Virus record (IMG/VR): IMGVR_UViG_3300008266_009503
Coordinates: 9,671-73,670 of that record
Length of the DNA: 64,000 nt
From: a virus
Direction: 5' to 3' (one strand)
Shown piece by piece: positions 15,908 through 33,956 of the stretch. A program made the position numbers and the translations under genes. The notes under the pieces were generated by a model. It searched no databases and was not told the DNA's origin. It saw only the letters and a list, made by a program, of their open reading frames with translations. Every line of letters begins with the position of its first letter. Positions within the stretch are counted from its first letter, which is position 1.

Positions 15908-15985
15908 CAGTCAGGACAGGATTCGAACCTGTGACGTACCACCACGGAATGAAAATAATGTACAAAAACGTTCCGCCACCCGACT
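15908..15985 (-). ncRNA. tRNA-like element 1 (no recognisable anticodon arm)
   Basis: AGTCGGG/CCTGACT acceptor; ACAGG-TTCGAAT-CCTGT T-arm; the middle does not form a cloverleaf. Confidence 0.75.
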
Positions 15986-16408: not shown

Positions 16409-16479
16409 TAGTCAGGGCAGGATTCGAACCTACAACGGAAACTATCGCAACCGCTTTTCCAAGTTTAAGCTACCTGACT
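16409..16479 (-). ncRNA. tRNA-like element 2 (shortened, unpaired anticodon region)
   Basis: AGTCAGG/CCTGACT acceptor; GCTT/AAGC D-stem; GTAGG-TTCGAAT-CCTGC T-arm; only 19 nt between the D- and T-arms. Confidence 0.75.
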
Positions 16480-16483
16480 ATTT

Positions 16484-16582
16484 AGGAAAGCAGAAGATGG
16501 GTGAGTGGACATCTGCTTTTATGATTGGCGTTTCTAACCGAGTTTCCAATCAACCTTTTAGACTTCACTGTGTTCAGAAGTT
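16484..16582 (-). ncRNA. Structured intergenic RNA candidate C (three hairpins)
   Basis: ACTTC/GAAGT, TGATTGG/CCAATCA and AAAGCAGA/TCTGCTTT stems in tandem. Confidence 0.45.
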
Positions 16583-16918
16583 TAGTTACTGTTCTATGAC
16601 TAGTTTTTATTTTTTATTAATTAACCTGTTTTCTAACTTGTCTAATCTAGAATCTAATTGACCGAATATTTCTTTTTCAAATAAATCTACCCTCCGGTGA
16701 ATTTGTGTATTCTCTTCGGCTATACTTTGATAAATTTGATTGATGGCTGTATTAAGGTATCTTTGAATTTCATCTAATTCATTTTTTACTTTGATTACCT
16801 TAACGAAAGCATAAGTTGCAACTACAGTTAAAGCTATAACCACAATAAATGCTATCCCTAAAATAAATGATAGTGTTTCCATAATTTATTTCTCCTTTAT
16901 GTCAAAGAACAGTAACTA
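16583..16918. repeat. 18-bp inverted repeat (17/18) at 16583-16600 and 16901-16918 enclosing ORF 16607-16882
   Basis: tagttactgttctatgac ... gtcaaagaacagtaacta. Confidence 0.85.
16607..16882 (-). CDS. Membrane-anchored coiled-coil protein
   Basis: N-terminal TM; heptads ending LDSRLDKLE; AAGGAG upstream. Confidence 0.75.
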   Translation of the reverse strand: METLSFILGIAFIVVIALTVVATYAFVKVIKVKNELDEIQRYLNTAINQIYQSIAEENTQIHRRVDLFEKEIFGQLDSRLDKLENRLINKK

Positions 16919-16920
16919 GG

Positions 16921-17076
16921 CTGTCAGGGAAGGATTCGAACCTCCATGCTGTGATTCGGTAGTAGACAAAATAGCCGGCTTTGTGGTCAACCCATATCCA
17001 GTTACCTATCTCAAATTCAGCGCCCACGAGACGAGTGGGTGTGTATGCCGTGGATATATCCTTTCACCACCTGACA
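16921..17076 (-). ncRNA. tRNA-like element 3: 156-nt enlarged tRNA-Asp(GTC)-like RNA
   Basis: TGTCAGG/CCTGACA plus G73; D-region with inserted GGATATATCC hairpin; CCCAC-TCGTCTC-GTGGG arm; about 75-nt variable region closed by GCTG/CAGC; GGAGG-TTCGAAT-CCTTC T-arm. Confidence 0.75.
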
Positions 17077-17081
17077 ATTAA

Positions 17082-17309
17082 TTAAAATATGTCGTTATTC
17101 CTTCTCTTAGCTTCTTCGGCTTCTTTGTAGATACGAATCCAAATAAGAGTAATGTCGACAATAGCGAGTACGGGTGCAAAGACTATAATAGCAAGAGTTT
17201 CTAATCCCGGTGTAGTACCAGTGACGCCGTCCATAGAAGTACGTTTATAACTCTTAAAGACTCTCCAAAGACAGTACGTAACACTTACAAGATAGATATA
17301 AAAAAACAT
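17082..17309 (-). CDS. Small membrane protein
   Basis: Two hydrophobic segments; starts about 15 nt after tRNA-Leu(TAA). Confidence 0.65.
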   Translation of the reverse strand: MFFYIYLVSVTYCLWRVFKSYKRTSMDGVTGTTPGLETLAIIVFAPVLAIVDITLIWIRIYKEAEEAKRRNNDIF

Positions 17310-17409: not shown

Positions 17410-17424
17410 ATTGATTATAAAATG

Positions 17425-17867
17425 TGGACCTAGCAGGACTCGAACCTGCGTCTCCGAAAGCGATAATAATACTAACGTCTCACATGCTTAGTACTGTATT
17501 TCTACTGCACCGTAGGGCTGACCTTTATGGTCGTTTCCACCACCTAGTTTACCAACTAGGAAATTACCTATCTTTTTACGACTTTAGCTTCAGTCGGAGA
17601 GATGATTCAAGATGTCTCGAAGTCTCCCATTCCACGGTCCTTATTTAGCGAGTCGATCGTGAACGCTCAGAGTAGTTCTGTTCCTAGGTTACTCACCCGA
17701 GGCTAATTAGGCTGCTAGAGCGTAATCAGCGCCTACGAAAGACATTACGTCATCGAAGGTCATTGTTGACATTTCGTCAGTTATTGTTTGCAGTTTTTTA
17801 AGGCGACTCTACCAAACGCCTGCATGTAGTATTACCTCAACATCCGGATCAATTCCAAGATAGGCCC
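17425..17867 (-). ncRNA. ssrA: tmRNA
   Basis: GGGCCTA/TAGGTCC acceptor with G3-U70 and A73; GCAGG-TTCGAGT-CCTGC T-arm; internal frame 17778-17707 DEMSTMTFDDVMSFVGADYALAA* following AATAACT. Confidence 0.93.
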
Positions 17868-22605: not shown

Positions 22606-22699
22606 TAGTCAGGACAGGATTCGAACCTGTGTAAAGTTTACAAGCTTTAACTACCACATTCATTAGTGGTATGCGTTATACCTATTCCATCACCTGACT
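22606..22699 (-). ncRNA. tRNA-like element 4 (8-nt loop in anticodon position)
   Basis: AGTCAGG/CCTGACT; TACCAC-TAATGAAT-GTGGTA; TAAAG/CTTTA variable stem; ACAGG-TTCGAAT-CCTGT. Confidence 0.75.
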
Positions 22700-22758: not shown

Positions 22759-25071
22759 CTAATGGCCATCTCTAAAATTTACCGAAACTTCTGGAATTGC
22801 AATCAACTCTACTCCGTCCAGTTTAGTTGTATTTTCCATACAGTCTTGAACTATCTCACAAGCCCTTGATACATCTTCTTCCCTAACTTGACAGATTAAC
22901 TGGTCATGTATCTGACAAATAACCTGTCCTACAATATTCTCCCTTTGAAATCTCCTGTTTATTTGTAAAGCTGCACGGTTTACTATACTTGCAGAATAAC
23001 TTTGAATTTGAAAGTTTAAACAGTTATTAAGTGCATTCTTATAGTCCCGGTATAGACTAGTAACATACTCAATTCCATAGTCTTTTTCGAGTTCTTTTCT
23101 AAATCGCCAATCTTCAATAAGCTTATCTCCTAGTGCAGCATAAATCTCTTTAGCTTGCGGTAGGTGTCTCACACGTCCTACTTTATTTTTAATATAACCT
23201 TGCTCCTTTACAAACTTACGAGAATTCTCTCTCCACTCTCTCAGTTGAGGAAATCCGTCAAGGTAACCTTCTATAAGCCTTTCTCCTTCTTTTCTATCTA
23301 CGCCCAGTGACATTGCTAGAGCATACCCGGACATACCGTACGGCACACCCAGAGAATAAGCTTTTGCTGTCTGTCTTTTAACCGGATCTACTTTTTTAAG
23401 GAAGTTAGGAGCTTTTGTGTGGGCACTAACTCCTTCTAATTTTTCAGTTTTTATAGCAATGTGAGAATAAAAGTCAAGATCGTTGTTAAAGATATCTTTT
23501 AATCCCTGATCACCTGCCACAGTAGCGAATACTCTAGGTTCTAGTGAAGCATAGTCAGTATCTAAAACCTTAGTACCTTCGTCTGCAATAAAGAACGCTC
23601 GAACTAGGTTAGTATAGTTCATAATCATTTCTTCATCCTGTCCTGGTTCAAGAGGTTTAGGTAATTGCTGCATATCCGATCCATAACGTCCCGATACGGT
23701 GCCGTTTTGCTTAAAGTACGGGTAAAACTTACCATCTTCTGCTGAATCTAAAAATCGATCTACATACGCAGTTTTAATCTTAGTAAGCTTGTTGTATAAA
23801 CGAAGGTGTTTTGCCCAAGTATATTTGTCTTTAATAGACTGAATCATATCTTCGTCGAACTGTGCTTTACCTTTAGTAGTTGACGAAATAGGTTTTTCGC
23901 CTAGAACATTAAAAGCTATTTTACCCATTTGATCCTTAGACTGAATATTAAAAAACTGCCCACTATTATCTTCTTTCCAAAGAGAGAGGCTAGTTCTTAC
24001 TATTTGATCTTTAGTTAGGTAGGTTGTATCGCCAGTTATTAGAAAATCTTTAAGAGCTGAGTTAGGAAGTCCAGATACAGCTGCTTTGTTAATCGTAAAC
24101 TTACCTGTTTTTTCTGATTTAGGTAATTCTATGTTATTATGCTCAAGCAGTCTTTGTGCAAAAATACCTTTACTCTTAGGAGGGTAAGCTTCTACAGCCT
24201 GATCTATAATCCAACCCCTGACTTTAGGCTCTTTTAATAGTTCTTGAACTACCAAGACAGACTGCTCTTCTAAGTCCTTAGCTATTCTGTCTCTAGTTTC
24301 TTGAATTAGAGGGATATCTAACCTTATACCGTGTTCTTCCATTGGTATAGTAACCTCTCTATAAACAGGCATAACTTCCTCTTCAAAGAAAAACTTATCT
24401 AGACCTTCTTTGATTAACACTTCTAAGAAATGCTTATAGATACGTAGAGTCAAGTCAGTATCGGCTGCTGCATACTTAGATAAAATCTCTAGGTCTGCTT
24501 TGTAAATTTCGTAACTCTCCTTAGAAGTAGATCCGCCATTAGCTTTAATACTATCCTTCAATGCTACCTGCTCTTCATTAGCTTCCTTCTCAACATCCAA
24601 TCCAATTTCTTTCTGTACCATTATAGCAATCGGTTTCAAACCAAACGGACTACCGTATCCGAAAGCTCCTTCTTCTTTTACTGTATGTACTAGTAAAGAA
24701 GTATCTGCATGAAGAGAAGGAAGCAAATTAATCCCATAAAAACACTTTACATACCGTAAGTCGAAAGAGGCGTTATGGCATATAAGTTTTTTATTTATGA
24801 GTTGATTAATAACAAACTTAGTTAATTCATGCGCTCCTTTACCTTCTATCTGTACTTCCTCTAATCGGTCTACATTCCATATCATAGTAGGCATATAAAA
24901 ACCTTTACCTACCTCTCCGGAGACAGAAAATCCTATAATACGCCCTTTACGCGGGTTCAGACTATCAGTCTCGGTATCGAAAGCTATGTACTCATTTTCC
25001 CTAATGTGTTGAATTAGTTCTTTTAAAGTTTCTTTGCTGTTTACAGTTACATAACTTTTTTGTTGTACCAT
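22759..25071 (-). CDS. polA: Family A DNA polymerase (3'-5' exonuclease plus polymerase, no 5'-3' exonuclease)
   Basis: FDTET, HNASFD, YAAAD; GTVSGR; DYASLEPR (motif A); RQTAKAYSLGVPYG (B); QIHDQ (C). Confidence 0.95.
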   Translation of the reverse strand: MVQQKSYVTVNSKETLKELIQHIRENEYIAFDTETDSLNPRKGRIIGFSVSGEVGKGFYMPTMIWNVDRLEEVQIEGKGAHELTKFVINQLINKKLICHNASFDLRYVKCFYGINLLPSLHADTSLLVHTVKEEGAFGYGSPFGLKPIAIMVQKEIGLDVEKEANEEQVALKDSIKANGGSTSKESYEIYKADLEILSKYAAADTDLTLRIYKHFLEVLIKEGLDKFFFEEEVMPVYREVTIPMEEHGIRLDIPLIQETRDRIAKDLEEQSVLVVQELLKEPKVRGWIIDQAVEAYPPKSKGIFAQRLLEHNNIELPKSEKTGKFTINKAAVSGLPNSALKDFLITGDTTYLTKDQIVRTSLSLWKEDNSGQFFNIQSKDQMGKIAFNVLGEKPISSTTKGKAQFDEDMIQSIKDKYTWAKHLRLYNKLTKIKTAYVDRFLDSAEDGKFYPYFKQNGTVSGRYGSDMQQLPKPLEPGQDEEMIMNYTNLVRAFFIADEGTKVLDTDYASLEPRVFATVAGDQGLKDIFNNDLDFYSHIAIKTEKLEGVSAHTKAPNFLKKVDPVKRQTAKAYSLGVPYGMSGYALAMSLGVDRKEGERLIEGYLDGFPQLREWRENSRKFVKEQGYIKNKVGRVRHLPQAKEIYAALGDKLIEDWRFRKELEKDYGIEYVTSLYRDYKNALNNCLNFQIQSYSASIVNRAALQINRRFQRENIVGQVICQIHDQLICQVREEDVSRACEIVQDCMENTTKLDGVELIAIPEVSVNFRDGH

Positions 25072-25109
25072 ACTAATTCTTTAGCTTACTACACTTACCT
25101 ACTAGCGTT

Positions 25110-25280
25110 TTAAAATTCTTCTACTATACCAAGTATCTCAGCTCCAATCAATAGCCCTCCGGCTGTATTGAAATACCACTGATCGGCGTACATTAAAGCG
25201 ATACCAGCGCATATTCGTACTCCTGATTTAATCAAGCTGATATTGAAGTGCCAAGTTGATTTACTTTCTTTCGGTTGCAT
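25110..25280 (-). CDS. Small membrane protein (56 aa, not in ORF track)
   Basis: MQPKESKSTWHFNISLIKSGVRICAG...AEILGIVEEF fills the gap. Confidence 0.65.
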   Translation of the reverse strand: MQPKESKSTWHFNISLIKSGVRICAGIALMYADQWYFNTAGGLLIGAEILGIVEEF

Positions 25281-25290
25281 AGTTTATGTT

Positions 25291-25833
25291 TTATAGACTT
25301 GAACTTCTCTGCTTATCGTTTTGCCACTGCCCGTCATAGAGCTCTTCTACAGGACTGCATTCATGAAAATAAATCTGAGCTACTCTAGCATCCTCTTCAA
25401 TAAAAATAGTTTCAGTAACAAGCATGATAGTACCCATATTCTCTGTTTCGAATCCTGGATCAAATACTGGAGAGTTAATCAATGTACCGTTACGCCACAG
25501 AGATGAACGCTGCTTAATAAAAGCTGTTCTGTTTGCAGGAATTTTACATCCTTCCCAAAAGGTGATATCGTAAGTTCCTGGATATAGTAACCATCCTTCT
25601 ACTCCGTCTACTTGTTTAGTATCGACAGCTGTATAGGTAGTTAATTCAGTTTTGTCTTTTAGTACTTTACCTATTTTATTATCAGAGTAAATACTATTAG
25701 CCATACCCTCAACACTAATACCTATTCGCTGTACTTCTTTAAGTGATAAATCATAACCTACTTGTGCAGGTTTGCCTTTAGAATCCTCTACCTTAAGTAA
25801 GTTTTCCTCTAAGATCTGTTTTGAATTTAGCAT
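25291..25833 (-). CDS. Trimeric dUTPase/dCTP deaminase family protein
   Basis: GYDL, RSS..R.G, FDPGF, RVAQI, Y.GQWQ. Confidence 0.85.
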   Translation of the reverse strand: MLNSKQILEENLLKVEDSKGKPAQVGYDLSLKEVQRIGISVEGMANSIYSDNKIGKVLKDKTELTTYTAVDTKQVDGVEGWLLYPGTYDITFWEGCKIPANRTAFIKQRSSLWRNGTLINSPVFDPGFETENMGTIMLVTETIFIEEDARVAQIYFHECSPVEELYDGQWQNDKQRSSSL

Positions 25834-25834
25834 A

Positions 25835-26023
25835 TTATTTCTTTTTAAATGGAAATTTTTTATTTAACGTACGTTTTCTCCTCTCACAACCGCAATCCTC
25901 TTTACCGAAAAAACGTGCTACCTTCTCGGCTAACTTATCAATACCGAGAACATTAGTTATCTTAGCAATAACATCGCCAAGTCCTTCGGAAGGTTTCTTT
26001 GAATTAAATTCCTCTGTTTTCAT
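25835..26023 (-). CDS. Small conserved phage protein
   Basis: GLGD.IAKIT...GI....DCGC..R...LN. Confidence 0.7.
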   Translation of the reverse strand: MKTEEFNSKKPSEGLGDVIAKITNVLGIDKLAEKVARFFGKEDCGCERRKRTLNKKFPFKKK

Positions 26024-26036
26024 ATAAATTTTTAAC

Positions 26037-26744
26037 TTACTTTACAGCTAAGTCAATATTCTTATAGAACTCCGCTCTTGCTGAATCTTCTTCTAAGAAA
26101 CATCCTGATAGCTTTGTGGTTTGCATAGAAGCACCTTGGTGTTTAATTCCTCTACAACTAACACAGTTATGAGTAGCATTTACCATGACAGCTACACCTA
26201 GGTTCCCTTCGCAGATTTTATTTACAGCATTGTGTATAGCTACAGTCAACTGTTCTTGAATTGCTCCCCTTCTTCCAAAATGCTCTACAATACGGTTCAG
26301 CTTACTCAACCCTACCACTCTTCCGTTCTCACTAGGGATATACGCAATCGATACAAGACCAGAAATCGTTTCATGATGGTGACTACAAACACTAGTAACA
26401 GGTATATTACTTTCCTGCACTATTCCGGTATATCCATCACTAGGAAAACTTGTTATCTCCGCTAGAGGATTAAACCTGCCGGCGAATTTATCATTTACAT
26501 AAGCTTTAGCTACTCTTCTCGGAGTATTAGAACTATTAGGATCATTCTCCCAATCCACACCCAATGCAGTTAAGAAGTTACCGTAATGCTTTGCTGCTTC
26601 TTCAATAATATAGTACTTATCGCTATCAGTCAGGGAGTGCTCTCCTCTTAAAATAGCATCTCTTAGGTAAGTACTAATACCATTAGCATGACCTGCTTGC
26701 GCTAATTCTAATTCTTCGATGTTTATGTGTTTGTCTCTATTCAT
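26037..26744 (-). CDS. folE: GTP cyclohydrolase I
   Basis: TPRRVAK, CSHH, GLSKLNR, QE, H.C..CRG. Confidence 0.95.
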   Translation of the reverse strand: MNRDKHINIEELELAQAGHANGISTYLRDAILRGEHSLTDSDKYYIIEEAAKHYGNFLTALGVDWENDPNSSNTPRRVAKAYVNDKFAGRFNPLAEITSFPSDGYTGIVQESNIPVTSVCSHHHETISGLVSIAYIPSENGRVVGLSKLNRIVEHFGRRGAIQEQLTVAIHNAVNKICEGNLGVAVMVNATHNCVSCRGIKHQGASMQTTKLSGCFLEEDSARAEFYKNIDLAVK

Positions 26745-26751
26745 ACGTATT

Positions 26752-27270
26752 TTATAAGTAATTAGAAATTTGATTTAGACGCTGTTCTACCGTTCCTGTT
26801 AAAGTTACGATTTTTTCTGCAGGAATATGCTCCTTAATAAAATCTTGTATAACTCTATCAATCTTAACCTGTAATTCCTGCCAAACACCGCCTGGCCTTT
26901 CGTCGTCTATTACGTAGTCAAACTCAATAGGAATATAGAAAAAGTATTCCACTTGGTGCTTAGTTTGCTGAAATAGCTCTAACATTCCAGTAACATCCAC
27001 GTCAGGAGCTACAATTTGAGAGTATATAATACAGTCTACAATACTTCGAGTACTTATTACATTCTTATGAGATAAGTAATTTTGATAAGCCCAAGCAGAT
27101 AATTCGTTAATTACAAACTGCTTTTCGTTATTAGTAAACTCTAAGTATTTAGCAATCTTAGTAACAGGCCTTGAGAATCCGTCTGTAACGTAGTAATCAG
27201 GAAACCGAGTAGGTACTTCCTTAAGTAAGGTAGTTTTACCGGTTCCATGCGAACCAATTAGTATTTTCAT
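26752..27270 (-). CDS. P-loop NMP-kinase-like protein (AAA_28/thymidylate kinase-like)
   Basis: GSHGTGKTTL; RSIVD..IYS; DD.R lid region. Confidence 0.75.
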   Translation of the reverse strand: MKILIGSHGTGKTTLLKEVPTRFPDYYVTDGFSRPVTKIAKYLEFTNNEKQFVINELSAWAYQNYLSHKNVISTRSIVDCIIYSQIVAPDVDVTGMLELFQQTKHQVEYFFYIPIEFDYVIDDERPGGVWQELQVKIDRVIQDFIKEHIPAEKIVTLTGTVEQRLNQISNYL

Positions 27271-27298
27271 GAGAATGTTTTAGTAAAAGTAAGTACCT

Positions 27299-27856
27299 TT
27301 ATTCGAAGTTCCAATTATTTTTGAAAAATCTTATCCAGGAATCGAGGGAAGTTCCGCGAAGTAGGTTGTACATATCGTCTAAACTCTGTGCAGTATTTGA
27401 AATAGCAGCGAATCTCACTACCTCTCCTTCGTCAACTCCTTCTGTTACTTTGTGTACTACAGATCCGATAGTATCATACTTTCCTTCCCAAGCCCTGATT
27501 TGAGGATCTTTTCCTTTTAACTCTGGAAAATAAGTAATCAGTCCAGGATGTCCGTTGTAAATCTTGCCAGTTAAGTACTGAAATAACTCTGGAGGTAGTA
27601 TTCTCAAAAAGCCATGCAACGTAATTAACTTCTTTTCTAGTAGTTCTGGAATAAGATAATCTTCTAGAGTAGGTCTAAACGGCATCTCTTTTACGGTCAC
27701 CCCTAATTCTACAAGAGATTTTAAGGTCTCTAGGGGCATCTTACGTATGTTATTGGTAATAAGAAGACTGGGGAGAAACCCAGTCTCTTTACTTATAGCA
27801 ATAACTTCTGATCCGGTCTGCGAGATAAGTACTCCCCAGTCTTTACATACTTTCAT
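27299..27856 (-). CDS. dpdN: PurN-like formyltransferase, probable preQ1 formyltransferase
   Basis: LISQTGS, GFLRIL, YNGHPG, VH.VTEGVDEG (N/H/D triad); abuts queF. Confidence 0.75.
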   Translation of the reverse strand: MKVCKDWGVLISQTGSEVIAISKETGFLPSLLITNNIRKMPLETLKSLVELGVTVKEMPFRPTLEDYLIPELLEKKLITLHGFLRILPPELFQYLTGKIYNGHPGLITYFPELKGKDPQIRAWEGKYDTIGSVVHKVTEGVDEGEVVRFAAISNTAQSLDDMYNLLRGTSLDSWIRFFKNNWNFE

Positions 27857-28776
27857 TACTGTCCCATTGCTTTTTTAGTGTAATAGTTTTTAGACCTTAA
27901 AGCTACCGGAATAAGTGCTTCTTTACTTGCACGTACTGGACAGATATCTAGAGACCCTCTTCGTGCATAAAGTAGCATTACGCAGCAATCCTGTACTAGA
28001 GGGTTAGACATAATCTCAGTATAGAGCTTTTCTGCACAAAACTCATGAAACTCGTTTACTTCCCGTAGGGAGATAACTAACTTCAAAAGTTCTTTTTCTT
28101 TAATTGATCCTTCTTTAGTTATAATCTGAAAATAAGCAGCTCCAGTATCTTTTTGCTTTGTATGCCTGCAGCGAGACCTAAGTATGTTAGTAAAGAAAGA
28201 GATATCTTCACTTGCTTCACCGTCTTGTGCTACAATCTCATACTTCCCTGAAGCGTTGTAGTCGCTTATTTCCATAGAAGCTAATTCTTTATCCGAAATA
28301 TAACCGTATAGATCAATAAAACCTTCTGTTGGGTTACCTTCTAGCATTTCATCGTCTCCAGAACCGAAGAAAGCGACTTCTACGGGGGCTCCAATACAGG
28401 CGCTAATATCCTTCTTTACTTGGTTTTCATAATTAGCAACAGCTTCAGGAATAGTAGCTCCCATCTTACACATGTCAAACGTATTCAAGTAGAGCTTAAA
28501 GGATTTAGACTCTACCATAAATTCAGAACTTGCAGGACATACTATTTTCAATGTACCTGCTAGAGGAAGACCATTGTTAAGCAGGAAAGTAGCTTCGTGG
28601 CAATGCCATACATCATATCCTACAAATTCATCTCCTTTAATACCCCAATCTTGACGTGCAAGAATACGCGGCATAGGATTAAGTTGTGAAGCATCAAACT
28701 GGTCTGTATAGACAGCATACGAGTTGGCCGAGCCAAGAGATTTAGCGGCGGCATCTGACATGTTATTAATTGACAT
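27856..28776 (-). CDS. queF: preQ0 reductase QueF (bimodular)
   Basis: VESKSFKLYLN motif, SRC..T.Q.D, EFHE.C.E, Y.RRG.LDI.P.R. Confidence 0.9.
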   Translation of the reverse strand: MSINNMSDAAAKSLGSANSYAVYTDQFDASQLNPMPRILARQDWGIKGDEFVGYDVWHCHEATFLLNNGLPLAGTLKIVCPASSEFMVESKSFKLYLNTFDMCKMGATIPEAVANYENQVKKDISACIGAPVEVAFFGSGDDEMLEGNPTEGFIDLYGYISDKELASMEISDYNASGKYEIVAQDGEASEDISFFTNILRSRCRHTKQKDTGAAYFQIITKEGSIKEKELLKLVISLREVNEFHEFCAEKLYTEIMSNPLVQDCCVMLLYARRGSLDICPVRASKEALIPVALRSKNYYTKKAMGQ

Positions 28777-28796
28777 AAACTTTGTTTTTTATTAAA

Positions 28797-29459
28797 TTAA
28801 GGTATTTTATTTAACTTTCCAACTTTTTTATAAGGACCTCTAGGCTTGCTAATCCGTTTTTTTCGAATTACTAACCTCATCTTTTCTTTTGTTTCTTCAG
28901 AATGGACGTATTTACCTACGTTACCTTTGTTATTGCTAGGCTTTCCTTTCTTGCTTTCAGACATCTTTTTTTTAGTTTCGTCCGAGCGTTTTTTATCCCT
29001 ATTACTCTGCTTTATTTTTTCAATCGTCTCTCTAGAATGAAATTTACCTAGCATACCTCTAGAAGGATTTTGCTTAGCTATTTCAGATCTTTTAAGCCTT
29101 GCTGCTTGAGATAGTGTTCTATCTGATTTAGAAAAAAGTTCTTTCGCTTCTTCGTATACCCTGTTACCAGCCTTACCTCTCTTCTGGTACTGGTTCCCGC
29201 TATTACACATTTTGTAAAAAGTGTAGACTGCTTTCTTATTTGTAGGGTATATTCGTGCTAGTAGCCAATGACATAAAAAATGCTCTCGAGCAGTTAACAG
29301 TACAAGGTTAGGATGCCATTTCCATTGATGGGCTTTTCCTTCTCCGCCTAAAAACTTAGGACGTATATGGTGAGCTTCGTAGTAAGACCCGTTTCCCCTA
29401 CTACGGCACTCTTTCTTAGCTTTTTCAATAATCTGATCGTAAATTTTTTGATAGTCCAT
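28797..29459 (-). CDS. HNH homing endonuclease with NUMOD3 repeats
   Basis: YEAHHIRP...GG....NLVLLTAREHFLCH.LL; HS.ET..K repeats. Confidence 0.9.
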   Translation of the reverse strand: MDYQKIYDQIIEKAKKECRSRGNGSYYEAHHIRPKFLGGEGKAHQWKWHPNLVLLTAREHFLCHWLLARIYPTNKKAVYTFYKMCNSGNQYQKRGKAGNRVYEEAKELFSKSDRTLSQAARLKRSEIAKQNPSRGMLGKFHSRETIEKIKQSNRDKKRSDETKKKMSESKKGKPSNNKGNVGKYVHSEETKEKMRLVIRKKRISKPRGPYKKVGKLNKIP

Positions 29460-29554
29460 ACAGTAAAAAATTGGCTCTTAGTCTAAGAGAGTACGGCAAT
29501 ACTCAATTAAACCTCGAGCCAAAAGTTTATAGCTGTTGCCGCAGCTTTTACTGT
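29460..29554 (-). ncRNA. Multi-stem leader RNA with kissing loops upstream of the HNH gene
   Basis: ACAGTAAAA/TTTTACTGT closing stem; AGCTG-CGGCAA-CAGCT; TTGGCTC/GAGCCAA; GAGTA-TTGCCG-TACTC; the two loops are exact complements. Confidence 0.75.
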
Positions 29555-29570
29555 AATAAATATTTAAAAG

Positions 29571-30347
29571 CTACAAATAATTTCTAAAAGTTTTTACGTT
29601 TTTAAAAATTAAATCTAACTGCTCTTCTTTTAACTCGATATCAAGATTATCAGCAAGCTTAGCTTTAGGTTTAGGAGTAGTTAACCCGTGAGGACCTAGT
29701 TCACTACCTACCCACCCGTTTACGACAGGGGAACTTGTATCTAGGGAATATATGAGGTTAGTTATATGCCTCTGATTATACTTATAGAGTATAAATTCGA
29801 CAGGGTTTTGACATCCTAGTAGGTGGAATTTAGGCATTTTACCTGAAAACTTAAACCTATTAGCATACCACCAGTTTAGAAACCTAAACCTAACTGTTAC
29901 GTAATCTGAATCAGGTACTAGATCAAAAGGTAATGCAATAATATCTACATTTTTTTGCATATACAAATCAATGCAATCAGCAATTTGATCAAAAGTCTCT
30001 CCTTGACATACGCCGATATAATTTAACTTATCAGACGCAAACTCATCGAGGTATTTTATAGCATTGCTTACGGTCTGATCATGATCGTTTACCTTATCCG
30101 GAAGTACGAGGTGAGTAGGCTTGTACGCCTCTCCTAACTCATATAACTCTTCCATTGGAATAGACTGCCCTAATTCAAAAGCAGAATTGTCTAGGATAGA
30201 ATAAGGGGCTGTTTGTAACTTCTCTTTATAAAACTCTGCATACTCCTTATCTTGATTTAGCAAATGACCTAACACGTAAGGGTAATCGCTAATTAAATCG
30301 TGGTAAGGAAATAACTGCTTTGGAATTTCGTGACTAATCTGTATCAT
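29571..30347 (-). CDS. dpdA: DpdA-like (TGT-fold) 7-deazaguanine transglycosylase, probably the DpdA3-type
   Basis: LDNSAFE, LPD, GVCQG, HLLG, SLDTSSP echo TGT-family motifs; lies between queF and queC. Confidence 0.7.
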   Translation of the reverse strand: MIQISHEIPKQLFPYHDLISDYPYVLGHLLNQDKEYAEFYKEKLQTAPYSILDNSAFELGQSIPMEELYELGEAYKPTHLVLPDKVNDHDQTVSNAIKYLDEFASDKLNYIGVCQGETFDQIADCIDLYMQKNVDIIALPFDLVPDSDYVTVRFRFLNWWYANRFKFSGKMPKFHLLGCQNPVEFILYKYNQRHITNLIYSLDTSSPVVNGWVGSELGPHGLTTPKPKAKLADNLDIELKEEQLDLIFKNVKTFRNYL

Positions 30348-30350
30348 CTT

Positions 30351-31208
30351 TTATTTATTATGTTCTGCTAATACATTTTCAACGTGTGCTCTAGCTACTT
30401 CCCAGCTAACAGGACCTCTTTCATCAGCATAATCTACAGGATCAGGACGTCCTAGTTTAATAAATGCTTCAATACGCTCTACTGATGCTGCTGATTTATA
30501 GTCGCTAAACCAGTACCCTTCTTTCGATTCATACAGAACTATGTCTCCATCTAATGTCTGAGCTTTAGGAATCCAAATAGGTTTATAGCTTGTATTGGTT
30601 CTTTTGTATACTTCATCAAAGTTAATACCAAGCTTCTCACAACACTCGAGACCGTCTTTTAAAATATCGAACTTATTAACTTCCAAATAAGGCGTGTAAT
30701 AAGAAACGCGATCAGCATGCCAGTTACCAACCCTAAAAGCGGTATCATCTGCATCACGGAATTCTTGACGGCAGTCCGGGTAGATAGCATGATCGCCTGC
30801 ATGAATACCCATAGCGATTTTAACTTCTGTTTCATTTTTAGTGGCAATTGATAAAGCTACCGCCTGAATAAGCGAGCTAAAAATTTTATTACGGTTAGGT
30901 ACTACAGTATCTTTCATATTATCCTGTTCGTAGTGTCCTTCGGGTATATCCCATCCGCCTTCTACAAGGGCTGAATTGAGTAGTTGAGTAATACCGTCAA
31001 TCTTAATTACCTGGTGTCTCACATAAGGAGTAGTACAGTCTGAATTAAGATACTCGATCAGAGATTTAGCTCTTTCAAGCTCTACTCTATGTTTTTGTCC
31101 GTAGTCAAAGCTAAGAGCTGTTACTTCATAACCGTTTGCAAGAAGGTGAAGAAGGAGAGAACTTGAGTCCATTCCACCTGACAGTGATAATACTGCTTGT
31201 TTTTTCAT
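30351..31208 (-). CDS. queC: 7-cyano-7-deazaguanine synthase
   Basis: SGGMDS, YGQKH, VPNRN, D...YPDCR. Confidence 0.93.
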   Translation of the reverse strand: MKKQAVLSLSGGMDSSSLLLHLLANGYEVTALSFDYGQKHRVELERAKSLIEYLNSDCTTPYVRHQVIKIDGITQLLNSALVEGGWDIPEGHYEQDNMKDTVVPNRNKIFSSLIQAVALSIATKNETEVKIAMGIHAGDHAIYPDCRQEFRDADDTAFRVGNWHADRVSYYTPYLEVNKFDILKDGLECCEKLGINFDEVYKRTNTSYKPIWIPKAQTLDGDIVLYESKEGYWFSDYKSAASVERIEAFIKLGRPDPVDYADERGPVSWEVARAHVENVLAEHNK

Positions 31209-31260
31209 TGTTAAAATAATTAAAATATAGAGCGTATTATTTTATGAATCGATTAGCTCT

Positions 31261-31473
31261 TTAACCGATTTTTTTATCTTCTTTCTTACTAATCTCCTGC
31301 TGCATAGATATTATTTGTGCAGCTAGACTAGCAGCTAAAGTTCCGAGCTGGGTCCAGAGATGGTCGCATTCTTTTTGAAACTTAAAAATTACTCTCCACT
31401 GCCAAACTTGTATAGCCATTAGGATTAAAATAATAGCTACATAAACGTGTTCAGAACCTATTGTAAATGTCAT
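31261..31473 (-). CDS. Small membrane protein
   Basis: N-terminal TM segment. Confidence 0.6.
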   Translation of the reverse strand: MTFTIGSEHVYVAIILILMAIQVWQWRVIFKFQKECDHLWTQLGTLAASLAAQIISMQQEISKKEDKKIG

Positions 31474-31485
31474 ACTATAAAGATA

Positions 31486-31740
31486 CTACTTCTCTTCTGA
31501 ATTAGCAACTGTCTCTCTCATAAAGTTATAAGCTTCTGGAGTTCCTGGAAAAGCTATAAAATTAGGTTCATTCATAGCTCTTTGTAGAATCTTAATAGTC
31601 AAATCTCTATTACGGGCATCTATCATAAGAGGTTCAAAAACAAATTCAGTATTAGAACCTTTCTTACGAACTAAGTAGTAGAGGCTTCCTGCGCCTACAT
31701 GCTTAATTGCTTCGTAAAAACTTTCAGCTGTTGTTTGCAT
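31486..31740 (-). CDS. Hypothetical protein
   Basis: Packed ORF. Confidence 0.6.
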   Translation of the reverse strand: MQTTAESFYEAIKHVGAGSLYYLVRKKGSNTEFVFEPLMIDARNRDLTIKILQRAMNEPNFIAFPGTPEAYNFMRETVANSEEK

Positions 31741-31966
31741 AATATAGGTGTCTTACTTTTTTTCCTAGTTCTTGATCGTTAGGTGTATCGTGAATTATCT
31801 TCTTTGGAATGAAGAAATGTGTCTTTTCTTCTGGGTTATCGTAGCAAAGTCTGCAGAGTTGACCCATTCCTTTAATGTAGCCGTATCTAAAATCAATGTG
31901 AGTATCGACAGTGTATGGAGTTTCACCTCCACATATTATACAATTTTCTGTTTGTGGCATATTCAT
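31724..31966 (-). CDS. Small Zn-finger protein
   Basis: CIICG...R.GY..G.GQLC..C. Confidence 0.7.
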   Translation of the reverse strand: MNMPQTENCIICGGETPYTVDTHIDFRYGYIKGMGQLCRLCYDNPEEKTHFFIPKKIIHDTPNDQELGKKVRHLYYANNS

Positions 31967-32069
31967 TGGTTTTTATCTTGTTTATCTGCATACCACATGG
32001 CTAACTTCAACATACCTAGCGGTACTGCAAAGGTTACTACTACTCCTAATATTAGATAAGGAACATTCA

Positions 32070-32906
32070 CTATACATTCAATGTTTTATTCCAAGCAGCA
32101 ATATGTAATCTAGTCAATCCACGGAATTTATATTTCTTAGCCATTTCAAGAACGAACTGTGTACGCTCTTCAAAGTTAGCTACATCATCCAAACCAGGCA
32201 TGCAAACTACATTTTTAAGAGGTATGCTAAATGGTACGACAAAGTCCCTAAAAAGTTCCAATACATCTTCTTCATTGCTGATTACGAATTTAAATTGATA
32301 ATTTTTATGTTCCATTACTCGCCTAATAGCGGCTTCGTTGATACGTTGTTTAGCTTCTAGTCCTGAATTGGATAGCTTGGGTGAGCAGTTAATTTGATCA
32401 AGCATAGTGAATAGCTTGTCTTCAATTTTAACTGTACCGTTTGTTTCAATTTCATAGAACGGACTAACAGTATTATCAAGATGTTTACCTAACCAGTAGT
32501 TAGTGAAGTTAACAATTGCTTGCTGATGACCTTTAATTGTTGGTTCTCCACCCGTCCAAATAATATGAATTACACCGTTTAGAATATCATCGTAAATACC
32601 TTCATCTTTCCAGCGTTTAATTAGATAGTCAAATTCTTTATCTTCGCCTCTCCACAACCATTGGCTTGTAGAATCACAAGTCCAAGTTGCTTTACCTTCA
32701 GCCTGTAAATCACCGACGAATATTTCACCGTCTTCAAGCTTTTGTTCTTTAGCAAGTTGGTTAGCAAACTGACGAGACATTCCGCAAGTTAAGTTACAGA
32801 TACCTAGACGAACAAAGTAAGAAGGTACTCCAGAGGAGATTCCCTCTCCTTGTACAGAATAAAAGTCTGAACTAATTAAAAGTTTACTTGAATCTATTTT
32901 ACTCAT
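32070..32906 (-). CDS. queE: 7-carboxy-7-deazaguanine synthase (radical SAM)
   Basis: FYSVQGEG, FVRL..CNLTC...CDS, TGGEP, IETNGT, SPKL, RLH. Confidence 0.92.
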   Translation of the reverse strand: MSKIDSSKLLISSDFYSVQGEGISSGVPSYFVRLGICNLTCGMSRQFANQLAKEQKLEDGEIFVGDLQAEGKATWTCDSTSQWLWRGEDKEFDYLIKRWKDEGIYDDILNGVIHIIWTGGEPTIKGHQQAIVNFTNYWLGKHLDNTVSPFYEIETNGTVKIEDKLFTMLDQINCSPKLSNSGLEAKQRINEAAIRRVMEHKNYQFKFVISNEEDVLELFRDFVVPFSIPLKNVVCMPGLDDVANFEERTQFVLEMAKKYKFRGLTRLHIAAWNKTLNV

Positions 32907-33098
32907 TTATAAAAATTTTTCTTTTTTAAGTTTATTATAAGTTGCGTTAGCTATAGCCAAAGTCCATAACACAAAGCATAGCCTTCCAATCCATCCCCAA
33001 CTAACAATACTAGACTCCCATGTTATAAGAGCTATGCAAATATAAGGTACAACTATAGCACCAACGGCTATTAGACAATAGACTAAGAACTTTCTCAT
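32907..33098 (-). CDS. Small membrane protein (2 TM)
   Basis: Two hydrophobic helices. Confidence 0.6.
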   Translation of the reverse strand: MRKFLVYCLIAVGAIVVPYICIALITWESSIVSWGWIGRLCFVLWTLAIANATYNKLKKEKFL

Positions 33099-33220
33099 CT
33101 GAATAATGTTTTTATATAGGTGAATATAGGATTTAATTGGGGTGTTTCCAACAAAAAAGCAGCAAGTGAGGGATGACTATCTCCACAAAAGCCTAGTGTG
33201 TGACTAATTACTTCTACCAT
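33095..33220 (-). CDS. 41-aa peptide (not in ORF track)
   Basis: MVEVISHTLGFCGDSHPSL...; its stop overlaps the next ATG (ATGA). Confidence 0.55.
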   Translation of the reverse strand: MVEVISHTLGFCGDSHPSLAAFLLETPQLNPIFTYIKTLFR

Positions 33221-33223
33221 AGT

Positions 33224-33538
33224 TTATTTATAATGTTGTAACTTAGCTCTATACTTATCAATCTGAATTTGACAATACCATTTACCTAACCAGCTACTAG
33301 CTTCAGCGTACTTTTTTTCCCACTTTTCTATATTCCTGAATACAGGTCTATTTGCTTTATTAATAATGTCTATATCGTAGTAGCTATCATTTTCTAACAT
33401 ACTCTCTTCCCAATGCCCTTCTGTATAGGGAGGAGGAGCTTGTTCAGCCTTTTCAATAAATTCTTTTTTCTTACTGTTCTTGGTAGATTTTTTATTCTGC
33501 ATATATGGCGGTATTTTTACTGTGTTCCATAAATTCAA
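33224..33538 (-). CDS. Hypothetical protein (true start probably internal, MQNKK)
   Basis: Packed ORF. Confidence 0.6.
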   Translation of the reverse strand: MNLWNTVKIPPYMQNKKSTKNSKKKEFIEKAEQAPPPYTEGHWEESMLENDSYYDIDIINKANRPVFRNIEKWEKKYAEASSWLGKWYCQIQIDKYRAKLQHYK

Positions 33539-33956
33539 CCTTTGCAGCCCGTACTCTACCCTCGGTCTCTACCTGTACAAAAGTATTAATTTTCTCAAAA
33601 ATAAATTTTGCAAATTGCTCCGCTCCGACGCCAGGAATAACTCTTAATTGAATAATACCTTGCTCATGCATTTTTTGAAATTCTGACAAGAAAGGATCGT
33701 CTTCGGCTACAAGGGTTGTATGGTCGAACATATAATCCATCCACGCTTTAGGATTCATTCCGTCGATAGTACCTTGAGCACGTTTCATACCTCCGAAATC
33801 CCAAACCCAATTACGGTGATCTAAATCACCCTGAAACCATACTCTAAAGGATATTCCATATCCATGCATGAACCTGCAGTGGGTACCTGCTGCTTTCCAT
33901 TGACGGAATACACAACTATAACCGTCAAAAACTTTTGTTGATTGAAACTTAGGCAT
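33492..33956 (-). CDS. queD: 6-carboxytetrahydropterin synthase (PTPS/QueD family)
   Basis: HCRFMHGY, WDFG, FDH, E.FA, V..MEH.KN.A.Y. Confidence 0.88.
   Translation of the reverse strand: MPKFQSTKVFDGYSCVFRQWKAAGTHCRFMHGYGISFRVWFQGDLDHRNWVWDFGGMKRAQGTIDGMNPKAWMDYMFDHTTLVAEDDPFLSEFQKMHEQGIIQLRVIPGVGAEQFAKFIFEKINTFVQVETEGRVRAAKVEFMEHSKNTAIYAE

Follow-up and report, generated by a model that had tools for sequence, protein, structure and literature searches.

Staphylococcal non-proteinogenic tRNA-Gly species serve as donors for cell-wall FemXAB, and tRNA-shaped RNAs that work off the ribosome are rare and informative. The dimerisation initiation site of HIV-1 is a palindromic loop. Among canonical tRNAs, the conserved determinants of aspartate identity are G73, G34, U35, C36 and C38, and bacterial tRNA-Asp has in addition a G1-C72 pair that aids AspRS (PMC9976931). 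The first base pair of the acceptor also matters for tRNA-bound amidation, in that U1-A72 promotes amidation by bacterial GatCAB and the G1-C72 pair of tRNA-Asp prevents it, while U20A is an antideterminant for GatCAB (PMC1635274). Here we describe a phage-encoded RNA that keeps the aspartate determinants, carries U1-A72 and has an anticodon loop that appears unfit for decoding.

The window, i.e. the whole stretch of 64,000 nucleotides that was analysed, comes from an IMG/VR virus record of 73.7 kb that is about 45% complete. The RNA takes up 156 nt of its minus strand (16921..17076), with the 5' U1 at 17076 and G73 at 16921, and all parts given below lie on that strand. A sequence-only reading of this DNA had described an intact acceptor stem with G73, a CCCAC/GTGGG stem with the 7-nt loop TC-GTC-TC, a hairpin within the D region and a structured variable arm of about 75 nt, and every one of these parts is present. 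The 7-bp acceptor stem pairs UGUCAGG (17070..17076) with CCUGACA (16922..16928), which is followed by G73 (16921) and C74 (16920). The D arm (17041..17067) is of the tRNA-Leu type, with the stem GUG/CAC and a loop composed of AAA, a hairpin and ACGGCAUA; the loop reads AAA...GGCAUA, and the insert between A15 and G18G19 is the palindromic hairpin GGAUAUAUCC (17052..17061). The anticodon arm CCCAC-UCGUCUC-GUGGG (17023..17039) presents GUC (17030-17032) in a 7-nt loop together with C33, U37 and C38. Next comes the giant variable arm of about 75 nt (16948..17021), an enlarged class II arm that in this copy is laid out as a proximal stem GCUG/CAGC, an internal loop GAGAUA/GAA, a distal stem and an apical loop; it holds the conserved apical motif UAUGGGUUGACCAC (16983..16996) and, at its tip, the self-complementary element AGCCGGCU (16973..16980). 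The invariant U48 (16946) precedes the T arm GGAGG-UUCGAAU-CCUUC (16929..16945). With U8-A14, A15-U48, G18G19, the T loop and the tRNA-Leu-like D arm in place, the class II tRNA body is complete.

Rfam cmscan left the RNA at 16921-17076 unmatched at E values up to 10, and ARAGORN made no call there or on any of its homologues (0/57), although ARAGORN and Rfam do call two tRNA-Leu genes, a tmRNA and three further odd tRNA-like elements nearby. A literature search found no description of the RNA. The family is uncatalogued: Rfam lacks it and tRNA finders overlook it. Separately, a 2023 survey includes a candidate, 'DNAVirus_1850', which overlaps one ARAGORN tRNA-Asp call and might be the present family. 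The single-sequence minimum-energy fold of the RNA is no better than that of shuffles (z = -0.48), so that the case for structure rests on comparison.

The 17-mer CCCACTCGTCTCGTGGG from the anticodon arm matches 78 IMG/VR contigs, 77 of which hold full-length homologues with an element of 150-170 nt, and searches without a fixed anticodon arm yielded about 45 further members; by covariance model, phage homologues amount to about 130 contigs from uncultivated phages. The family structure was drawn from RNAalifold and pair counts, and the window copy scores 167.4 bits against the covariance model R1. A first alignment of 56 unique sequences gave a class II cloverleaf with compensatory changes in 23 of 39 pairs. 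In an alignment of 94 distinct sequences, which was fitted to R1 and is to that extent biased toward the structure, 99.0% of cells pair, compared with 41-50% in a control in which the partners were slid by 1-3 columns. Both-sided changes occur there in 28/39 pairs, including all five of the anticodon stem; acceptor pairs 3-70 to 7-66 and the T stem covary, and in the variable arm helices 4-7 show 95-100% pairing and include 12 compensatory pairs. None of 500 shuffles reached any observed measure, and a MAFFT alignment gave the same helices independently of R1. The earlier reading had looked to related phages for conservation of the GUC loop and the insert structure; both are conserved, and the arm helices covary. 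The window RNA is a real, strongly conserved structured RNA.

The failure of standard tRNA finders, together with the calls that ARAGORN makes in intron mode, could be taken as signs of a decaying tRNA pseudogene or of a tRNA split by an intron or a mobile insert. This is contradicted by the covariation, since the RNA is conserved in about 130 contigs of phages and in 16 genomes of bacteria, with compensatory changes in every helix, the arm included. Moreover, the intron-mode calls are mutually inconsistent, and Rfam returned no group I or group II intron match for the RNA. We regard such an origin as scarcely credible. The more specific suggestion of a non-canonical intron is not supported either, because the insert is an extended class II variable arm and one member (L674) has a short, ordinary arm.

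As to distribution, blastn against 50,697 phage records (INPHARED) detected no homologue of the RNA. Flavobacterium phage immuto is the closest among cultured phages: its PolA is 56% identical, and it has a syntenic 7-deazaguanine/PolA/GroES-EL block; a search of this phage with R1 gave no match. Loose gapped DNA patterns run over viral, metagenome and genome collections produced chance matches, with at least three extra members among the matches listed, and the corresponding scan of genome contigs gave mere chance matches, no member being among the 120 matches listed. DNA of the region is present in lake, freshwater and estuary metagenomes. A single metatranscriptome run, available as assembled contigs, leaves the RNA core uncovered and gives no evidence for or against expression.

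Across the family, the variable arm consists of a 4-bp and a 3-bp helix, followed by a distal helix of about 10 bp and the apical loop, and its internal loop, GAAAUAG opposite GAA, is conserved. The apical core GGnUnGACCAC is invariant or nearly so among phage copies and the full motif UAUGGGUUGACCAC is near-invariant, while its GGGUUGACCAC portion is found in most bacterial copies too (see below). An AUG-GGU-UGA string in the arm of the window copy is not conserved. The D-loop insert is optional: members without it read GUGAAAUUGGCAGACAC, short inserts are mostly perfect palindromes of 8-12 nt, and a longer class carries a UCUCAGUUAU loop. Palindromes also mark the arm tip: just past the apical motif, a stretch of 8-12 nt forms a perfect Watson-Crick palindrome in about 90 of 93 phage copies, compared with an average of 4.4 nt in shuffled segments. 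Fourteen distinct ones occur, e.g. AGCCGGCU, GCUUGCAAGC, GCUGCAGC, GCUCGAGC, GCCGGCCGGC and GCUGGCCAGC, with six different central tetranucleotides, every one self-complementary, and with predicted duplex energies of -9.5 to -24 kcal/mol; among bacterial copies such a palindrome is present in 1/19. As a self-complementary centre is needless in a hairpin, the simplest reading is pairing between two molecules, and we surmise that the phage arm tip probably lets two RNA molecules form a dimer. If the covarying palindromes do reflect selected self-pairing, they would offer a natural example of it within a tRNA scaffold.

We compared the positions that a synthetase reads with those that the ribosome needs. 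G34, U35 and C36 are invariant (94/94 phage copies) and C38 nearly so (90/94); G73 is kept in 91/93, U1-A72 in 93/93 phage and 19/19 bacterial copies, and G2-C71 in all phage copies but one. U8, G9, G10, A14, A15, G18G19 and U48 are likewise invariant among phage copies, half of which have UUCGAAU or variants as the T loop. In contrast, position 33 is C in 62, A in 17, U in 14 and G in 1 of the 94 copies, and position 37 is U in 77, C in 14 and A in 3, hence a pyrimidine in 91/94. Set against a canonical tRNA-Asp, the RNA has the GUC anticodon, G73 and the tertiary core (U8-A14, G18G19, T loop), but it lacks U33 and purine 37 in its 7-nt loop. The determinants listed for aspartate (PMC9976931) are kept while U33 and a purine at 37 are not, which means that the family keeps the bases read by AspRS and lets decoding needs drift. 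The proposal of a tRNA-Asp(GUC)-like molecule with aspartate identity marks, apparently unfit to decode, is thereby borne out at family level (GUC 94/94, U33 14/94, purine-37 3/94). With marks for aspartate charging kept and those for codon reading not, the RNA probably works off the ribosome.

A specialised tRNA-Asp that does decode Asp codons, and whose odd loop would escape host nucleases or queuosine modification, is an alternative in keeping with the 7-nt loop, the 5-bp stem, the GUC anticodon, the full tRNA core and the placement in tRNA clusters. Nevertheless, we consider it quite improbable in view of the counts at 33 and 37, the 75-nt arm and the host copies, which are mostly single and lie beside AsnC, outside tRNA sets. 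It also meets the difficulty that the same genomes hold a canonical tRNA-Asp: the complete jumbo phages G001 and G028 encode 25 canonical tRNAs each, including a tRNA-Asp with the loop CUGUCAC, and one copy of the RNA stands at the end of the 25-tRNA array. With a canonical tRNA-Asp (U33, A37) beside it, the RNA is not the Asp decoder of the phage. Complete phages of about 175 kb have one copy of the RNA, 1-2 true tRNAs within 10 kb and a tmRNA; its retention by phages that themselves encode hardly any tRNAs indicates that it is of importance in infection.

The long variable arm, G73 and G2-C71 might instead suggest a serine-accepting class II tRNA, similar to allo-tRNAs and read by SerRS via the long arm and G73, and SerRS ignores anticodons. 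Several features speak against it: the acceptor/T branch is 7/5, not 8/4 or 9/3, the D stem has U11-A24 in place of C11-G24, and the base of the arm is an interrupted helix. Besides, charging by SerRS leaves an invariant GUC in a non-decoding loop unexplained, and we judge this option highly improbable.

The RNA shares maturation signals with the tRNAs around it. C74 is present in 93/93 phage copies, compared with 348/386 canonical tRNAs from these loci, and a U precedes U1 in 80/94 phage copies; U(-1) and C74 are common to the RNA and the neighbouring true tRNAs, and the 3' trailers CAA/CTA/CAT are the same for the RNA and the canonical tRNAs of its loci. CCA is not encoded in the RNA genes. 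The window copy sits in a tmRNA/tRNA operon, after a gene for a 75-aa putative membrane protein with two hydrophobic segments (17082..17309, minus), whose stop lies 5 nt before the RNA. Homologues of this protein (34-62% identity) are encoded on the strand of the RNA and upstream of it in 50 loci, of which the window is one; in 36 of these, again counting the window, the gene ends no more than 20 nt from the RNA. The protein has no match in Pfam, PHROG or phage tblastn, and in the ESM Atlas solely anonymous viral and Bacteroidota look-alikes. A scan for promoters and terminators gave nothing beyond shuffles. None of 33 RNA-bearing phage records encodes an AspRS-type enzyme. The suggested tie to queuosine and TGT fares poorly, with QueC in just 10/33 RNA-bearing records (4/12 complete ones), so that the 7-deazaguanine cluster of the window is not tied to the RNA.

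One could argue that the RNA is solely a cis-acting processing or stability signal, i.e. RNase P/Z punctuation that ends the mRNA of the 75-aa gene, given that the stop precedes the RNA by 5-20 nt in 36 loci, the window among them, and given that three other tRNA-framed elements in the window also punctuate small ORFs (15908-15985, 16409-16479 and 22606-22699, minus; frame GGTTCGAATCCnnnCCTGAC, non-canonical middles). However, processing requires the acceptor and T arms alone, many phage copies have no adjacent ORF, and punctuation accounts neither for the invariance of GUC and the covariation in the anticodon stem nor for the conserved motifs of the arm and the host genes that stand alone, for which reasons we think it very improbable.

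Some further features of the neighbourhood deserve mention in their own right. The acceptor/T frame of these three elements, which is tRNA-Leu-like with A73 and reads AGUCAGG UG GCGGAAUGGUAGACGC ... ACAGGUUCGAAUCCUGUCCUGACUA, occurs again in more than 119 IMG/VR contigs, where the middles are hypervariable and measure roughly 20-130 nt, up to 8 copies being found in 5 kb (L093), and some of the middles recur with covarying stems, e.g. with the loop UAAUGAAU. The true tmRNA of the window (17424-17867, minus) has, according to ARAGORN, the tag ADYALAA alone; its relatives in other loci have unusually long predicted tags, e.g. DEMSTMTFDDLMAFVGADYALAA. About 40 nt past the RNA, behind a conserved leader GUUACUGUUCUUUGACAUAAAGGAG, lies the gene of a 91-aa protein (16607-16882, minus) whose N-terminal stretch is hydrophobic and whose C-terminal part is long and polar, and homologues of it occur near the RNA in 19 other loci, upstream in some. 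The dodecamer CUGAACACAGUG directly follows the RNA on its 3' side in nine phage loci, with one base different in two (loci named: L020, L037, L050, L054, L067, L308 and L708); in the window it comes after the inserted 91-aa ORF instead (16566-16577, minus). It resembles a conserved border between modules, or else the beginning of a further RNA. The 7-deazaguanine cluster belongs to a cluster-PolA-GroES-GroEL order (window 22759-33956) that recurs in Flavobacterium phage immuto. Pfam TGT (PF01702) misses the DpdA-like gene of this cluster, and searches for the DpdA family therefore need another model.

The RNA is not confined to phages. R1, built from phage sequences only, found one full-length match in each of three chromosomes (3/3), from Dyadobacter, Ekhidna and Saprospiraceae, and under strict filters it found full-length matches in 14 of 151 sampled Bacteroidota genomes. 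The bacterial matches run end to end at 52-114 bits and were obtained from 16 positive chromosomes, mostly as single copies; in forty other genomes R1 with laxer filters returned ordinary class II tRNAs alone. Bacterial copies measure 109-212 nt, have U1-A72 and G73 in 19/19, and have no family in Rfam. Most of their anticodon loops read UUGUCUC, CUGUCUC or UCGUCUC, and in three copies CUC or UUC replaces GUC. As the phage copies share with them U1-A72, G73, the N-N-GUC-Y-C loop and the giant arm with GGGUUGACCAC, the window RNA is a phage copy of a Bacteroidota RNA family. In an unrooted tree built from the model alignment (156 columns), a single branch splits 66 phage from 19 bacterial copies with an SH-aLRT of 99, which fits one old transfer whose direction is left unproven.

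An AsnC-like gene of the Lrp/AsnC family lies divergently upstream of the RNA in 10 of the 16 positive genomes. Its products are 54-71% identical to one another and score 159-170 bits on the NCBIfam AsnC model (curated cut-off 227), other Lrp models giving 86 bits at most. No such divergent regulator is found beside the window copy, which lies in its tmRNA/tRNA operon. Among individual bacteria, we observed two-copy genomes (G075, L731: 1200-1411 and 1501-1695; G171, L735: 1279-1388 and 1501-1609; G179, L733 and L737), and both copies of G171 are short (109-110 nt), lack GGGUUGACCAC and have UUC at the anticodon position, where the Ekhidna copy has CUC. In one bacterium the RNA is located just downstream of lysS, which encodes lysine-tRNA ligase (L723, 1864-3150, minus), and in another it is flanked by the AsnC-like gene and by a gene for a TrmB-type methyltransferase (L725, 1992-2753).

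Taking these data together, we see about an even chance that the RNA does not decode, is recognised by AspRS and matures as tRNAs do. RNase P together with 3' trimming would release it from the tmRNA/tRNA operon transcript, CCA would then be added, and host AspRS would aspartylate an RNA that is kept off the ribosome. U1-A72 might further make the Asp-charged RNA a substrate of GatCAB, by which Asp would be converted to Asn on a carrier unable to mistranslate Asp codons. U1-A72, the AsnC-like neighbour and GatB, which is present in 16/16 positive genomes, point to asparagine synthesis on such a non-mistranslating carrier. That the RNA is an asparagine carrier on which GatCAB converts bound Asp to Asn is the foremost specific mechanism, though a tentative one that we think unlikely. 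In its fullest form, a discriminating AspRS would charge the RNA by way of GUC, C38 and G73, GatCAB would amidate it by virtue of U1-A72, the remodelled loop and giant arm would keep Asn-RNA(GUC) off the ribosome, the divergent AsnC-like regulator would control the RNA gene in hosts, and the phage would bring its own unregulated copy, constitutive and dimerising, that raises the supply of asparagine in infected cells; the RNA dimer would perhaps match the two sites of the dimeric AspRS. To this combined scenario, too, we attach rather low probability. RNA-bound Asp-to-Asn conversion under AsnC control is nevertheless a concrete hypothesis that emerges from the pattern of conservation.

Several observations weigh against parts of the carrier reading. 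The positive hosts possess AsnRS (16/16) and mostly an AsnB-type synthetase (14/16), and AsnA is absent from all genomes checked; with AsnRS and AsnB kept, there is no pattern of gene loss that demands an asparagine carrier. GatB, moreover, is frequent in RNA-negative genomes too (33/40). To GatCAB the enlarged D loop may be an antideterminant in the way that U20A is. Charging by AspRS would itself have to do with U1-A72 in place of the helpful G1-C72. AspRS approaches its tRNA from the variable-arm side, with which the 75-nt arm might clash. The three bacterial copies with CUC or UUC in place of GUC also count against an aspartate reading, and we know of no route for the release of free asparagine.

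The main rival to the carrier reading is a decoy or regulator that carries no amino acid and acts by binding a protein that recognises the anticodon of tRNA-Asp. Candidate targets are AspRS, with an RNA dimer perhaps holding both sites of the enzyme dimer, a host anticodon nuclease and a modification enzyme. In its favour, GUC, C38 and G73 are (nearly) invariant while decoding positions drift, the covarying phage-specific palindrome fits a symmetric dimer, and tRNA-targeting defences and phage countermeasures are known. On the other hand, phage counter-defence does not explain why hosts encode the same RNA beside an amino-acid regulator, conservation of U1-A72 and G2-C71 is needless for anticodon-loop nucleases, and to our knowledge no nuclease is specific for tRNA-Asp alone. 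We hold the decoy to be doubtful.

Whatever its role, the family is widespread, both among phages of fresh water and in Bacteroidota, where a tenth of the sampled species have it, and its conservation pattern parts the bases read by a synthetase from those needed by the ribosome unusually cleanly. Its cloverleaf is most like that of class II tRNAs, especially tRNA-Leu (RF00005), with which it shares the 7/5 acceptor/T branch, the D arm GUGAAAUUGGCAGACAC, the A15-U48 pair, G18G19, the T loop and the hairpin form of the variable arm. It differs from tRNA-Leu in that this arm is about five times longer and has conserved internal motifs, and in having G73 in place of A73, a GUC anticodon, a position 33 at which U is not kept and a pyrimidine at 37. 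The 7-bp acceptor and 5-bp T stem also set it apart from allo-tRNAs, which are 8/4 or 9/3 (PMC5389517). With the tRNA-Asn of the indirect pathway, which is served by non-discriminating AspRS and GatCAB (PMC1635274), it has in common U1-A72, G73 and an Asp-type anticodon stem-loop, and GatCAB occurs in every positive host. However, its anticodon is GUC, not GUU, so that a discriminating AspRS would suffice, its D loop is enlarged to class II size, with a hairpin insert in the window copy, and its putative product could not enter translation.

The palindromes of the arm resemble the HIV-1 dimerisation site in being short, GC-rich, self-complementary loops whose palindromy is kept while the letters change, whereas the context is unrelated and the dimer would here follow from sequence alone. 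As an off-ribosome aminoacyl carrier beside normal isoacceptors, the RNA would be comparable with staphylococcal tRNA-Gly; the latter is of normal size with weakened EF-Tu binding, in contrast to the remodelled loop and arm of the present RNA. Compared with tmRNA (RF00023) as a whole, it has no Rfam match and no conserved tag frame (AUG-GGU-UGA). It is similar to the aminoacylatable tRNA-like structures of plant RNA viruses and to the tRNA-like domain of tmRNA in being virus-borne or non-decoding with synthetase and processing signals kept, but those forms have no true anticodon arm or a pseudoknotted acceptor, whereas the RNA described here is a complete, stand-alone cloverleaf with homologues in host chromosomes.
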